DNA of 64,000 nt, from positions 31,620,001 through 31,684,000 of the forward strand of contig OX597823.1 of assembly GCA_951406725.2 (NCBI GenBank). Direction: 5' to 3'. Both the position numbers and the translations under genes were made by a program. Below are positions 1,135 to 63,347 of this stretch, piece after piece (position 1 is the first letter of the stretch; each line of letters begins with the position of its first letter). This DNA is from Octopus vulgaris (Eukaryota). The notes beneath the pieces are model-generated. The model saw nothing but the letters and a program-made list of their open reading frames with translations, had not been told where the DNA came from and did not search any database.

Positions 1135-1396
1135 CATTATTTACATTGTTTACAATTGACGGATATTTGTCCTCATCTTGTTTGTTGTTAACACAACGTT
1201 TCGGTTGATATACCCTCCAGCCTTCATCAGGTGTCTTGGGGAAATTTCGAACCTAATTTCCCCAAGACACCTGATGAAGGCTGGAGGGTATATCAGCCGA
1301 AATGTGTTGACAATAAACAAGATGAGGACAAATATCTGCAAATGTAAATAATGTAAATAATGTAAATAATTCCTTATCTCTTAAATATAGAACTGT
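1135..1396 (+). mobile_element. Penelope-like (pLTR-derived) inverted-arm element, family A, with 12-bp TSD
   Basis: About 110-bp inverted arms around a short spacer, plus an unpaired 3' tail ending cttaaatatagaactgt. Direct repeat agattccatcaa at 1123-1134 and 1397-1408. Same family at 22560 and 35691. Confidence 0.8.
1190..1235 (-). ncRNA. Minimal type-I hammerhead ribozyme motif (family A)
   Basis: Minus strand reads GACAC CUGAUGA A GGCUG-gagggtatat-CAACC GAAA CG UU GUGUU: stem I GACAC/GUGUU, intact core, stem II with one mismatch, palindromic AACGUU stem III. The plus-strand partner (1266-1308) has lost 3 nt of stem III. Confidence 0.7.
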
Positions 1397-2331
1397 AGAT
1401 TCCATCAAAGTAAATATTTTCATCCATCATTAAGAACCTGTAGAAGTCCTCATCCAACATCATAGAAAAGCACAGACCATTCTTAGCTGTAGGGAAGCTA
1501 ATTGTTCTACAATCATTTAAGAACATCTATCCTGGCCAAATTCCATCTCCGTATCTTTTGGAATGTTATAACTAGATTAAAGCTTTTCTTTATACTGTTC
1601 ATACTCTTAGCAAATCACTCACAAACAAGCAATGCGTTAAATTAGTGCTCTTGTCTATTTGTGAAACAATTGCCCATAACATTTCCTTAATAAAAAAGAA
1701 AGACGGTTCAAAAAAAATACAAATAACGTTTTCTATACATCGTTGACGACAAATTTTGCCTGAGCATGTTGTTGGCTGTGTGTATTCCCTATTGACTACG
1801 CACAACGAGGCAGAAATGCATTTGGTATTCTCACTAGCAAATGCTTAGAAGATTTTCGTCTCTCCTGGTTTATATATGGTGTTTTTAAACACAGCACGTT
1901 CATAAAAGATATTGTCTCCGAAGGAACACCGCGGTAAATTTACCTTGCGTGGTGTTGTGGCTGTTTTAATCTAAAACTGCTAATGCTGCAGTATCATAGA
2001 AATACGTTCTCCTTTGAAATACATCTCAGCGGTTATAATAACCACTTTCCGCATCTAACTTCAGAATAGTGGACCAAGACGAAACCAGGCTGTTTATAGC
2101 ATTGATAATGGTATCTGGATAATGGTTAGCAAGTCCAAACGTCCCAAGCATCCGCGAATGTTGAACAGAATAATTCTTACCCGTAATCCATCCTCACTGT
2201 CAACAAGTTCCGCCTATACCACCCCGATGCTTTTCATATCACGGGTTACTTAACAGTTGTTCGTCTTATCAACAAATTCCATTATTATTTCCATATACAT
2301 ATGTATAAATTCATTTATGTCTGCCTTATGT

Positions 2332-2660
2332 CTATATATATATATATATATATATATATATATATATATATATATATATCATATTTCATATTTCATATAT
2401 TATATATCATGTAAATATATATATATATATATATATATATATATATATATATATATATATATATATATATATATATATATATATATATATATATATATAT
2501 ATACATATATATATATATATATATATATATATATATATATATATATATATATGTATGTATGTATGTATGTATGTATGTATGTATTTTTGTGTATGTATGC
2601 AAGCTTGTATGCATGATGTATGTTCGTATGTATGTAAGTGTGTGTGTGAGTGTGTGCGTG
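2332..2660. repeat. Compound (TA)n/(TATG)n/(TG)n microsatellite, representative of dozens across the window
   Basis: Direct inspection; such tracts generate the [12 protein letters not shown] ORFs in the track. Confidence 0.95.
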
Positions 2661-4544
2661 TCTGCGTGAATGTAAAAGTGCTCAAAGCACACTTCAGTTA
2701 CAAGAGATTAACGTCTAAAATATGTTTGACAATCACCACCCCCCACACACACACACAGAGGATGCGAGGGTTTTTTTTTGTTAACGCTTTTTGTTTTTTT
2801 GTTTTTTGCTTGAAAATCGTTCCTTTCATTTAAACTGTTCCAGTTTCTACACCCGGGTAACCAGGAATTATTACCTCCACCATTCCCGAATACACCCGCC
2901 AGCACCAGCACCAACAGCAACAACAGCAACAACAACAACTACTACTACTACTACTACTACTACTACTATGACAATAACAACAGCAACAACAAACTAACAT
3001 TTCACACGACAAAGACACCGACTAAGACCAAAATCTTCAGAGATTCCTGCTTTTTACTCTCAGAGAATACAACCGCTCTCCTCCCCTCCACCCCGACGCA
3101 AATAAAAAACACAATGAAGTCCCCCGCCCCACACCTATTCACCATCTCCCAACAGATCCCATCTCACAACAGACAGGAAAGAACATAGAAAAAAACGAAG
3201 AAAACAAGTATAATATTAACGTTAAGAAATATATATATATACATAAATATATATATATATCTTAACACACACACACACACACACACACACACACACAGAT
3301 ATATATATATATATATATATATATATATATATATATATACATATATATATATACATATATATATATACATATATATACATATATATACATATATATATTA
3401 TATACATATATATGTATTTATATATATATATGTGTGTGTGTGTGTGTATGTATACACACGCACATACATATACATACACATACATATATATACACATACA
3501 TATATATACACATACATGTATATACACATACATACATATATATATATACATACATATATATATATATATATATATATATATACATACGCACATCCGTATA
3601 TATATATATATATATATATGAACACATACACATATATATATATACACACATTTGTATACACACATACATTTATATATATATATATATATTTTGAATAAAA
3701 GGTGGTGGTGGTGGTGGTTGTGGAATGAGATAATATTTTTACCAAATATCTTTCTCCACCCGGCGCCGCCATTATTGAAAAGACTCTCAGAAATCCTTAT
3801 GGAGGAGAAAGAATTAAAAAAAAAAAAGACGGATGAAAAAAAAAAAAACATACGAAAAGTGTAAAGATAAAAGAAAGTTGCCATAAAACTATACAGACCT
3901 TGTAAAGTCTTCATTTTACTATAGATGGTGGCGGTGGCGGTAGTGGTGAAGATGGAGGCGTGGATGGAGATAGGTGGTGGTGGTGGAGAATTGAATTGGG
4001 ACGAAGGTTTGTATTTCGTTATTTATGCGGCAGGGTATGCATGCATACATACATACATACATACATACATACATACATACATACATATACATATACATAT
4101 ATTTATATATGTATATATATATATATATATATTTATGTATGTATGTATGTATACATACATATATATATATATACATACATACATATGTATGTATGTATGT
4201 TTTTGTGCACATGTGTATGTATATATATATATATATTTACATACATTCATATATATATAGTCATAGATACACGCATACATTACACACACACACACACACA
4301 CGCACCTATATGCGTACATACATATAGATGTATGCATTTATGCATGTGTGTGTATGTTTGTGTGTGTGTGTGAAACTAGAAAGGGATAGATGTTAGATAT
4401 GCAAAAATAATTTTCTATATTATATATATATATATATATATATATATATATATATATATATATATATACAGGCAGACAGACAGGCAAGCAGGCAGACAGG
4501 TAGATCGATTGATAGGTGCCTATGTCAATATTTATGTATTTGTA

Positions 4545-61045: not shown

Positions 61046-61074
61046 TTGTGGCAAATAAAAAACATTATATTAGT

Positions 61075-61980
61075 ATAATGTTTAGTGTCATTTTGTCTGT
61101 CTTTAGATTCCGAGTTCAAATTTCACTGAGGCTGATTTTGCCCTTCATCCTTTAAGGGTCGATAAAATAAAGTACCAGTTAAGTACTGGGGATTGATGTA
61201 ATTGACTTCCATCCCCATCCCACTCAAAAATTACTGGCCCTGTGCTAAAATTTGAAGTCATTATTAATATTGCTCATGACAAGCCAACAGAATTGTTAAC
61301 AACATCAGGCAAAATGCTTAGCAGCATTTTGTCATTAAGTTCCAAATTCAAATTCCGCCAAAGTCGACTTTACCTTTCATCCTTTTGGGGTCAATAAATT
61401 ATGTACCAGTGAGATACTGAGGTCAATGTAATTGACTTAACCCCTCCCCTGAAATTGCTGGCCTTGTGTCAAAATTTGAAATTATTATTATTTTTATCAT
61501 TATTATTCTTATTAAAAAGGCAGCGAGCTGGCAGAATTGTTAGCACATAGGATGAAATGCTTAGTAGTATTTTGTCTGTTTTTAGGTTCTGAGTTCAAAT
61601 TCCGCCAAGGTTGACTTTGCCTTTTATCTTTTCAGGGTCGATAAATTAAGTAGCAGTTGATTGTTGGGGGTCGATGTGATTGACTGTCCCTCTCCCCACA
61701 AAATCCAGGCCTTGTACCTATGGTAAAAAGGATTATCATTATTATTATTATCATCATCATTATTATTATAAGGTGGCTAGCTGGCAGAATCATTAGCACA
61801 CTGGGCAAAATGCTTGGTGCCATTTCATCTACTGCTACGTTCTGAGTTCAAATTCCGCCAAGGTTGACTTTGCCTTTCATCCTTTCAGGGTTGATAAAAT
61901 AAATACCAGTCAAACATTGGGGTTAATGTAACTGACTTAAGCCCTCCCCCAAAATGCCTGCCCTTCTGGCAAAATATGAA
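61075..61980 (+). mobile_element. Head-to-tail array of four Meta-like SINEs (group 2)
   Basis: Units at about 61075-61260, 61280-61480, 61517-61735 and 61770-61980, separated by (ATT)n. Confidence 0.88.
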
Positions 61981-62799
61981 ACCACCATCACCATCCGTAC
62001 ATACTTGTATTTGCAGTGTAGGTGTTGACTAGTGGCAAATGAAAATATTGTCTCTTTCCGTCAGGCATGAAGTCTTCAGGCAGAATAGAGACCCAACGGT
62101 TCCCAGCAATCCAAAGTTGTCTATGATATCGGTGTGTGTTATTTTTTCATTTATATCATTTATAGACAAATATTATTATTGTGTATGTGCAGGTGGTTGT
62201 ATGCTGGATATAGTCATACATATACATGTATGTATAACATAATGTCATACAATCAGAACTATGACCATATATATATATATATATATATATATATATATAT
62301 ATACACACACACACATATAGGATTATATAAAGGATATATTTATTATTATTATGTACATTTAACATTACAAACAGAACAGAACCAAATACAGAAAACTATA
62401 TTTGTATTTTTTTTTATTAACCAAGGGGATTCACTTGTCAAAGTATAAATGTGTGTGTGTGTGTGTGTGTGTGTGTGTGTGTGTGTACACGGAGTAGATG
62501 AAACCATGGCGACTGAAGAAGGGGAATTTTCCTTGCGTTATTTGTCCGGTACTCTATTTTTTCGTTGTTTAAGAAAAATGTCCAGTTCCTTGGTTTTGTG
62601 TTTATGTTTTCGTTTCTCATTGTGTTCAACGTTTTCTTGGTGTCCTGTACCCATATATGCATGTGTATATACATGTAGATGTAGGTACATACATATATGT
62701 ATGTATATATGCATATGTTTTATTTATTAATTTGTTATTACACAACAGAACGCACGCATCCATTTCTAAGTAAGTTTGTTCTCTATATATATACATACA

Positions 62800-63347
62800 G
62801 GTGCAAGAGTGGCTGTGTGGTAAGAAGCTTGCCTCTCAACCACATGTTTCTGGGTTCAGTCCCACTGCATGGCACCTTGGGCAAGTGTCTTCTGCTATAG
62901 CCTTTGGCTGACCAAAGCCTTGTGAGTGGATTTGGTAGACGGAAACTGAAAGAAGCCTATCGTGTGTGTGTGTGTATATATATATATATATATATATACC
63001 GGAGTAAACACATAAATGTGAAACAAGGTAGAAAACAGAGTACTCAAATACCAGTGGTAGAGTAATATGCTTTATTTAAAGCAGCAGAAAATTCAACAAA
63101 ACCTGTTACTCTGAGTTTTGCTAGCAAAAACTGTCCGATGAACGGCAATGGGAAACTCAGAGTAACAGGTTTTGTTGAGTTTTCTGCTCCTTTAAATAAA
63201 GTATATATATATATATATATATATATATATATATATATATACATACACACACACACATAGATATATATACATGTATATGTTTGTGTTTGTCCCCACCACC
63301 ATCGCTTGACAACCGATGCTGGGGTGTTTATGTCCCCATAGCTTAGC
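62800..63347 (+). mobile_element. CORE-type SINE (group 1), 3' truncated, hosting a family E element
   Basis: Head and CORE at 62800-62962, resuming at 63278-63347. Confidence 0.85.
62998..63203. mobile_element. Penelope-like inverted-arm element, family E, with hammerhead-like motif at 63131-63168 (+)
   Basis: Arms 63069-63118 and 63153-63203; CUGU CCGAUGA acggcaaugg GAAA CUCAGAG UA ACAG; inserted in (TA)n; related pieces at 23401-23547 and 52225-52345. Confidence 0.7.

Follow-up and report, generated by a model that had tools for sequence, protein, structure and literature searches.

The window, a 64,000-nucleotide stretch of the Octopus vulgaris genome, carries motifs of seven sequence families (A to G) that are predicted minimal type I hammerheads. 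Those of families A, C and F are very probably the pLTR hammerheads of truncated insertions of Penelope-like elements (PLEs), and the motifs of B, D, E, G, H and I are likely the same. They are real but ordinary for this genome. All 13 motifs named in the initial annotation were recovered where it had placed them, to within 2 nt. The features of the window are:

1136-1396, unstranded: family A insertion with an inverted arm at 1136-1254 (motif 1190-1235, minus) and a forward arm at 1255-1395 (motif 1266-1308, plus, 3-nt deletion); 12-bp TSD at 1123-1134 and 1397-1408.
14465-14632, unstranded: family D insertion truncated 3' of the core, with an inverted arm and no hammerhead core; absent from the initial annotation.
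15143-15520, plus: family B insertion with a consensus-like motif at 15308-15370 (plus; 3-bp stem I, long stem II, palindromic helix III) and an upstream inverted arm.
19565-19725, minus: family F stub, motif 19605-19710 with G12A; long copies of the family enter a PLE GIY-YIG frame.
20282-20382, minus: family D-related stub, motif 20308-20368 with U4C; the monomer folds in silico into all three stems.
22561-22644, minus: inverted arm of a family A insertion, beginning within stem II.
22647-22720, plus: family A tRNA-like segment, with an A box (from position 8 on) and a B box (at the T-loop position) in a decayed cloverleaf, followed by (AAT)n.
22759-22938, plus: family A pLTR body and tail, motif 22806-22851 with stems I and II damaged, within the predicted ORF N-terminus.
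22962-23166, plus: family C stub, intact motif 23046-23093.
23399-23545, plus: family E-related stub, motif 23403-23440 with U4C and a broken stem II.
25831-25919, plus: decayed remnant of family H, with one relative (in locus L165).
33900-34074, minus: family G stub, motif 33968-34004; the family core is CUGUNGA and this copy has one extra core base.
35690-36010, unstranded: family A insertion with an inverted arm at 35690-35822 (motif 35737-35779, minus, 3-nt deletion) and a forward arm at 35849-36010 (motif 35895-35940, plus, A6G); 13-bp TSD at 35678-35690 and 36011-36023.
45061-45222, minus: family D stub, motif 45162-45222 with the core intact.
46375-46500, minus: stub of an eighth family (I), motif 46386-46430 with a stem II mismatch; short inverted arm.
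62999-63201, unstranded: family E fold-back insertion in (TA)n, motif 63131-63168 (plus) with U4C and a 2-bp stem II closing a GNRA loop.

Four of the five family A motifs form two opposite-strand pairs, each pair being one insertion in one TSD, and the five motifs therefore represent three insertions. The motifs at 1266 and 35737 lack 3 nt at helix III and the cut site. Together with those at 35895 (A6G), of F (G12A) and of G (inserted base), they have broken or variant cores, and stem II is broken at 22806 and 23403. A palindromic helix III and a short complementary helix I are present in all seven family consensuses. The core elements CUGANGA, GAAA and UH are kept in the consensuses of A, B, C and D; E and F have U4C, the F core being counted intact in one tally and with U4C in another, and G departs.

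The Penelope link drawn in the initial annotation was borne out for families A, C and F, in which long copies enter PLE reading frames, and we infer it for B, D, E and G. Four family A copies (L324, L045, L006 and L311) continue upstream into a GIY-YIG C-terminus, the full-length copy L363 has its upstream pLTR in frame with the ORF, L365 matches the RT domain PF00078 (E 1.4e-10), and the family ORF has Atlas matches to HTH_animal/GIY-YIG clusters at 0.97. In family C, L370 holds RT and GIY-YIG remnants with an inverted pLTR, and L367 a GIY-YIG. Five of the seven long family F loci have an upstream GIY-YIG frame. The arrangement of EN+ PLEs, an ORF with RT plus GIY-YIG at its C terminus upstream of the pLTR, is thereby found in A and C, with F having the GIY-YIG part only. 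Family A presumably belongs to the Penelope/Poseidon clade, a label taken from motif resemblance and from a layout like that of the Anolis carolinensis Poseidon element PAc. Autonomous PLEs are present in G000, where 148 of the 150 scored were PF01541 matches, with 781-aa ORFs; one locus (L104) consists of an ORF, a hammerhead and an inverted hammerhead. No upstream ORF was found for B, D, E and G in 30 loci each (1.5-kb flanks), nor for G in three 10-kb loci. These four families carry part of the PLE footprint, with microsatellite targets in all four and inverted arms in B, D and E.

Upstream inverted arms occur in all 10 family A loci and in 15 (B), 6 (C), 15 (D) and 26 (E) of 30 loci, and are scarce or absent in F (1 of 30) and G (0 of 30). 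One arm was long and the other short in 16 of 18 inverted pairs; 6 of 15 family D inverted arms were exactly 42 nt short, and family E folds back at one fixed palindrome. Family A has two 3' ends, at about 143-162 and 185-192, and a 30-40 nt tail was seen in families A and D. In families B to G, between 18 and 30 of the 30 copies have a dinucleotide microsatellite close to the 3' end, versus a 19% background. Two window copies are flanked by TSDs, and a survey of 18 loci found TSDs at 6, compared with 3 of 48 controls. The insertions thus have the features of EN+ PLE insertions, an inverted 5'-truncated arm with a tail and a TSD in AT-rich or microsatellite targets, the TSD at only 6 of the 18 loci. 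It is very unlikely that the motifs belong to non-LTR retrozymes, tandem 170-400 nt repeats self-cleaving into circular RNAs. Type I topology is common to both, and retrozymes have been proposed as PLE derivatives (bioRxiv 10.64898/2026.07.22.740005), but head-to-tail tandem hammerhead units were not found: upstream direct copies occur in just 0-2 of 10-30 loci per family, the window has no same-strand tandem pair of one family, and the long copies have ORFs.

For the PLE insertions, we propose a stub-forming mechanism borrowed from another PLE. An RT/GIY-YIG protein would nick AT-rich DNA and prime reverse transcription within its own RNA slightly past the hammerhead, by analogy with Anolis Poseidon as described in the available part of PMC11167929. 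With this start just past the hammerhead, the hammerhead would therefore be copied early in each insertion. Two RT start sites would produce the 30-40 nt tail, and an early stop or snap-back would leave 100-400 bp stubs and head-to-head arms within one TSD. The copied RNA was likely uncleaved because the copies span the cut site. The palindromic helix III is predicted to need either a second RNA copy or the help of a protein to form. Of nine window copies folded as monomers by minimum free energy, only one reproduced the hammerhead. Inverted pairs were also considered as cis dimers, an idea dropped since one arm only is sense. Read-through RNAs of the inverted pairs have predicted folds of -90 to -224 kcal/mol with 74-88% of bases paired. 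Most window copies are likely inert, being damaged, solitary or hidden in a long hairpin on read-through.

Chance matches in AT-rich, microsatellite-rich DNA have practically no standing as an explanation, already refuted for A to G and I by shuffled and reversed controls and by 807-3,734 first-look candidates per family, and favored only by a remnant at 49090 without family support. As the initial annotation had expected, motifs exceed chance, with three strict matches in the window versus none in any of 40 block dinucleotide shuffles; the reversed window had none with the same descriptor. Allowing one core mismatch gave seven matches versus a shuffle mean of 0.73 (maximum 2). The descriptor must permit an extra base at 9/10.1, as one without that base recovered none of the motifs. 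We also scanned a 600 kb fixed-step genome sample for the core, stem II and palindromic helix III with no condition on stem I. Stem I of at least 4 bp was present in 19 of the 36 matches and in none of the 35 matches from eight shuffles in total. Complementary stem I, which had been argued to reflect structure rather than chance, appears though the scan did not demand it. Three weak remnants had also been listed. The one at 46386-46430 belongs to a real family (I; 12 BLAST matches in about 2 Mb of fetched loci), that at 25831-25919 has one relative, and 49090-49140 had low-complexity matches only and is unconfirmed. Loose core matches at 33253, 54804 and 62079 had no relatives and were rejected. 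The output of repeat finders on the window was swamped by microsatellites.

The window is not the dense local swarm that had been described. Its three strict matches compare with 13 in the 600 kb sample (1.4 per 64 kb; P=0.16), which is genome background, and the idea of a local hotspot was dropped. Extrapolation gives about 60,000 strict motifs in the genome (95% CI 32,000-104,000). The suggested large and diverse radiation holds up: the intact-looking motifs in about 2 Mb of fetched loci, not randomly chosen, fall into 37 sequence clusters, of which 16 have at least two members. The claim of at least seven unrelated families stands for sequence, with an origin in pLTRs that all probably share. 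As to the suggested under-annotation, one intact family A copy had no Rfam hammerhead at E<=10, and a scan of the window had none among the matches listed (150 of 597). One intact 46-nt family A motif has 848 exact copies (control 0). A single animal genome is estimated to hold 60,000-100,000 intact-looking minimal hammerheads in dozens of families, with Rfam blind in the copy tested.

A tRNA-like A/B-box segment lies about 30 nt past the ORF stop in 26 of 30 ORF-selected family A loci. The segment sits in the pLTR of the coding element itself, just ahead of the predicted ribozyme, and is possibly a second promoter. We put the odds at about even between a Pol III promoter that supplies the short copies and a snap-back hotspot. 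A working Pol III (type 2) promoter, to which we give nearly an even chance, would send transcripts from the segment through the hammerhead into the ORF start; copied at the internal RT site, these would yield, in the absence of any distinct SINE lineage, SINE-like copies about 290 bp long. The A and B boxes have canonical tRNA spacing with decayed stems, ARAGORN called a tRNA on the 30-copy consensus only at a lowered threshold, and RF00005 matched at a weak 14.4 bits (E 1.1); at default settings ARAGORN found no tRNAs in L001-L010, and similarity of the head to other SINE heads of the window was not significant (E>=1.1). Among 19 hammerhead-selected copies that reach the segment, 14 have their 5' ends within -16 to +5 of its start, and 6 of 11 unselected copies have theirs within -7 to +6. 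This pile-up, however, overlaps one of only two hairpins of at least 5 bp in the last 900 nt, and of ten copies reaching the ORF N-terminus none begins at the segment, two including it yet running farther upstream. The boxes are also no better kept among copies than the rest (0.92 and 0.96 versus 0.94). The 2,324-nt family A ORF consensus contains no run of four T, where three co-resident PLE ORFs have 8-9 (three nulls gave P 0.019-0.036), but the comparison was post hoc, and a shortage of T runs is also seen in several other A-rich retroelement ORFs.

It is also quite plausible, if short of even, that the segment came as a passenger, through capture of an old SINE or tRNA fragment by the 3' UTR, and that the pile-up reflects cDNA snap-back at a palindrome overlapping its first bases. 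A 12-nt palindrome covers -7 to +5, many copies have fold-backs of 8-14 nt or longer at the segment junction, and a second 5'-end hotspot just before stem I likewise lies on a palindrome. The fixed palindrome of family E is a further case, and palindromes at inverted junctions are described as self-priming sites in the available part of PMC3846280. Among 26 ORF-bearing copies, 14 have a damaged segment. Snap-back nevertheless requires the cDNA to end at the segment, as an RNA 5' end would also produce, and would make coincidences of the absent T runs and of the match between the pile-up and tRNA position +1. Unstranded-looking RNA-seq reads of a related organism covered locus L359 in both directions, deeper over head and body than over the ORF, and are not assignable to loci; they showed no start or end pile-up at any site and give no evidence either way.

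The short family A copies have an A/B-box head at the 5' end, as tRNA-derived SINEs do, albeit with weak tRNA scores. A separate SINE lineage with a tRNA head and a PLE tail, parasitising PLE enzymes, is improbable and largely refuted. In 22 of 30 head-selected loci the head, (AAT)n and body lie in collinear order, and 19 of 30 have an inverted arm, but the head follows the ORF stop in 26 of 30 ORF-selected loci, and one consensus is common to head-start and ORF-bearing copies, CpG sites excepted; a non-autonomous lineage apart from its partner element was thus not found. At its boldest, the Pol III promoter reading would make family A a coding Penelope-like retrotransposon switched to Pol III, with a captured tRNA promoter driving a unit of about 2.6 kb, an ORF purged of TTTT terminators, and tens of thousands of SINE-like hammerhead stubs arising from the same transcripts. 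We regard this as unlikely; if true, family A would combine an autonomous retroelement with its own SINE. If the segment is a Pol III promoter, it would represent SINE birth within an autonomous Penelope element, a PLE counterpart of TRIMp3, and would offer a test of the RNAs accepted by PLE reverse transcriptases. In the literature listings searched, we found no PLE with a tRNA-derived pLTR segment.

Family G does not have the A of minimal type I hammerheads at core position 6. U is found there family-wide (core CUGUNGA): of 12 fixed-step copies, 11 have another base than A (10 have U and one has C), and all 30 G-selected matches have U; position 7 varies. The literature listings searched likewise showed no natural hammerhead with A6U. 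Lunse et al. 2016, reportedly the main paper on variant PLE hammerheads, may already describe the C, E or G variants. With about 65,000 copies, U6 and a free position 7, family G is a natural experiment on whether the hammerhead is retained for cleavage or as a protein-binding fold.

The link of these families to PLEs agrees with the published minimal PLE hammerheads, and the type of swarm is already known, as many hammerhead families with opposite-strand pairs are in print (PMC4209133). Like those hammerheads, the motifs have a short helix I, an extra base between 9 and 10.1, and a loop III that is palindromic or absent; there are many heterogeneous families per genome, mostly solitary with few beside an ORF, and some opposite-strand pairs 100-700 bp apart. 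Unlike them, C and E have unpaired bases flanking stem II on both sides and G has U6. The estimated load is about 60,000 strict motifs here versus 2,000-9,000 in the published survey, with different descriptors.

The following comparisons extend as far as the available parts of each source. Family A resembles PAc (Frangieh et al. 2024, PMC11167929) in having the hammerhead over the ORF start and the element 3' end in the ORF N-terminus, two 3' ends that set the tail, AT-rich targets and copies across the cut site. The nearest in-frame ATG would lie upstream of the core in family A, judging from L363, and is at stem II in PAc; unlike in family A, a tRNA-like segment is not mentioned for PAc in the available part of that source. 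As in Adineta vaga EN+ PLE insertions (PMC3846280), the inverted 5' pLTR is shorter than the direct one. The 30-40 bp tail, TSD and palindromes at inverted junctions are shared with EN+ PLEs (PMC3846280; bioRxiv 10.1101/2021.04.23.441226), and the microsatellite bias is also stated for Naiad/Chlamys (bioRxiv 10.1101/2021.04.23.441226). The TSDs are 12-13 bp versus 8-10 bp in known EN+ PLEs, which also differ from the tens of thousands of copies, mostly stubs, found here (both PMC3846280; bioRxiv 10.1101/2021.04.23.441226). A small-RNA-derived, Pol III promoter-like segment is present in the terminal repeat of the TRIMp3 elements Cassandra, Helenus and Ajax (Kojima 2024, PMC10886601), and a segment of this kind precedes the hammerhead in the SINE-like hammerhead repeats of Schistosoma (as reviewed in PMC6765202). 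TRIMp3, which are LTR elements, and the Schistosoma repeats are non-autonomous (PMC10886601, PMC6765202), whereas in family A an ORF-bearing PLE has the segment in its pLTR.

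All 13 hammerhead motifs named in the initial annotation are present in the window at the positions given there; the window is a sequence of 34% GC with many microsatellites and short repeats. Using a descriptor that tolerates a single extra base at either flank of stem II, we found three strict matches, compared with none in each of 40 shuffles; permitting one core mismatch gave seven against a shuffle mean of 0.73 (40 shuffles). The motifs had been read as structure rather than chance, and this was upheld, as stem I reached at least 4 bp in 19 of 36 matches in a 600-kb genome sample though not required, versus 0 of 35 from eight shuffles. 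One intact 46-nt family A motif occurs 848 times in the 2.8-Gb genome (control, 0), and first-look candidates number 807-3,734 per named family genome-wide (40 scored each). Helix III is palindromic in the majority sequences of all families A-G, built from the best copies (10 for A, 30 each for B-G). The core is kept in A, B, C and D, but E and F carry U4C and G is altered at position 6. A proposed remnant at 49090-49140 is core-like but has no relatives in the ~2 Mb of fetched loci.

The swarm had also been described as dense; its density is ordinary for this genome. Sixty 10-kb stretches sampled at fixed steps (600 kb) contain 13 strict matches, or 1.4 per 64 kb, and the three in the window are unremarkable (P=0.16) and not a local hotspot. 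Extrapolation from this sample gives ~60,000 strict motifs genome-wide (32,000-104,000); a palindrome-based descriptor extrapolates to 89,000-98,000. That the set is large and diverse was borne out by 163 intact-looking motifs in 37 clusters across all fetched loci (~2 Mb, not random). The 14 arms in the window versus 3.3 expected were not used as enrichment, the comparison being circular, with the window's own families counted against the sample. A further minimal hammerhead family, also very abundant (core with U4C, stem II of 4 bp; L046, L062, L068, L084, L098 and L099), accounts for six of the 13 strict fixed-step matches and is absent from the window.

GIY-YIG matches confirm Penelope-like elements (PLEs) in the genome (148 of the 150 scored); many of the matches share a frame of 781 aa with RT. 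The suggested Penelope link stands for A, C and F, which run into PLE frames, but no ORF was found in the flanks examined for B, D, E and G. Family A copies continue upstream into a GIY-YIG C-terminus. At a full-length family A locus, L363, one continuous frame runs from the upstream terminal repeat (pLTR) across the hammerhead to the ORF, so every family A stub ends within the ORF N-terminus, as described for Poseidon of Anolis carolinensis and Adineta PLEs. A family C locus, L370, retains RT and GIY-YIG remnants, a hammerhead and an inverted pLTR; family F has an upstream GIY-YIG frame in five of seven extended loci. At locus L104 the ORF precedes a hammerhead, with an inverted hammerhead copy upstream. 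Such inverted arms lie upstream in 10/10 copies of A, 15/30 of B, 6/30 of C, 15/30 of D, 26/30 of E, 1/30 of F and 0/30 of G. Family A has two 3' ends ~35 nt apart, one of each in 16 of 18 inverted pairs, and six of 15 family D arms have a 42-nt tail. Two family A pairs in the window have exact target-site duplications (12 and 13 bp); duplications flank six of 18 other loci versus three of 48 mismatched controls.

In the pLTR body of family A (window 1341-1370 is one example), copies vary by complete 9-nt repeat units; these sit in the predicted ORF N-terminus, and the frame is kept. A single fixed point is where 16 of the 26 inverted arms of family E begin (window 62999-63201), and the resulting 200-bp fold-backs in (TA)n are near-perfect and might be mistaken for MITEs. 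A young PLE family (L101 2406-6087, L102, L109; copies 95-99% identical) has a 781-aa RT/GIY-YIG frame and a second upstream frame of 330-360 aa; no strict hammerhead was found on the sense strand.

Family A carries a 74-nt segment about 30 nt 3' of the stop codon of its ORF; the segment has A and B boxes spaced as in tRNAs and is followed by (AAT)n and the hammerhead. It scores weakly as a tRNA (ARAGORN required a lowered threshold; RF00005, 14.4 bits). By a script filter, 26 of the 30 loci selected by ORF have it after the stop; these 30 include the query locus, one locus twice and three near-identical C31 duplicates. Deletions shift it in two others and two lack it. Of the 30 loci selected by their hammerhead, 14 begin at the segment, four reach the ORF, three start inside the segment and nine show none; L408, one of these nine, is a copy with an ORF that another insertion has split. 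Counting L408, 14 of the 19 hammerhead-selected copies that reach the segment start there, as do six of 11 unselected copies. The short copies are unlikely to be a separate SINE lineage, because head-start (n=31) and ORF-bearing (n=26) copies have one consensus, CpG sites aside.

That the segment is a Pol III promoter is close to an even proposition. Copies' 5' ends pile up at it, and the 2,324-nt ORF consensus contains no TTTT run, versus 8-9 in L101, L102 and L104. T runs average 3.3-3.9 per kb in other PLE frames against 0.38; the shortage has P 0.019-0.036 under three nulls, but this test was post hoc, and T runs are also scarce in several other retroelement ORFs. The boxes are conserved no better than the rest, and none of the 10 copies that extend to the ORF N-terminus starts at the segment (10 fetched of 40 matches). 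A palindrome also overlaps the pile-up site, and snap-back there, for which self-priming palindromes described in PMC3846280 are a precedent, has roughly even chances of accounting for the 5' ends. D. virilis Penelope has an internal, LINE-like promoter (PMC2377424).

By analogy with PMC11167929, reverse transcription would initiate internally on the RNA, just past the hammerhead, which would explain why so many stubs contain it. Two start sites would delimit the tail, the RNA substrate would be uncleaved, and the hammerhead may be protein-assisted and dispensable for in vitro insertion. Most window copies are likely inert, because the core is broken or variant in five motifs, stem II is broken in two others, and RNA folding predicts that inverted pairs form long hairpins. 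For a minimal motif, PMC4209133 reports no cleavage as a monomer and weak cleavage as a dimer.

Of 12 fixed-step copies of family G, 11 lack A at position 6 and 10 have U there; position 7 is variable, and ~65,000 copies are extrapolated genome-wide from 14 matches. A natural A6C variant is known, with slower cleavage in Mg2+ (PMC7151607, PMC3088659). No natural A6U appeared among the papers that our literature search listed.

Other features of the window are as follows.
41518-41931, minus strand: exon of a Maf-type bZIP gene (PF03131, E 1.6e-28)
e.g. 13825-14051, 19995-20220, 30260-30453: short interspersed repeat family 1
e.g. 14117-14276, 30543-30700, 62803-62962: short interspersed repeat family 2
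e.g. 4532-4765, 51916-52131, 61077-61980: short interspersed repeat family 3, several copies clustered at 61077-61980
17949-18373: 212-bp tandem duplication, two copies, 97% identical
The bZIP exon is covered by RNA reads from a related organism, which stop near 41925; its upstream exon was not located, and the hammerheads at 45162 and 46386 may lie in an intron of this gene. The three repeat families are abundant (roughly ten copies or more of each), with units of 120-230 bp.

The observation is real, the earlier interpretation correct and the phenomenon largely known: the swarm is as PMC4209133 describes. Non-LTR retrozymes (PMC7229834; bioRxiv 10.64898/2026.07.22.740005) are tandem and do not fit the window motifs. 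An octopus repeat annotation (PMC13282606) lists many PLE families and many unclassified SINE families; a term search of its main text found neither hammerhead nor ribozyme. Two parts merit follow-up: the pLTR with a tRNA-like segment in a coding PLE, and family G with its U6. Among the papers that a literature search listed, none described a PLE whose pLTR contains a tRNA-derived segment. The family A segment has its nearest analogues in the TRIMp3 elements (PMC10886601), non-autonomous LTR elements with a Pol III promoter-like segment, and in the SINE-like hammerhead repeats of Schistosoma (PMC6765202).
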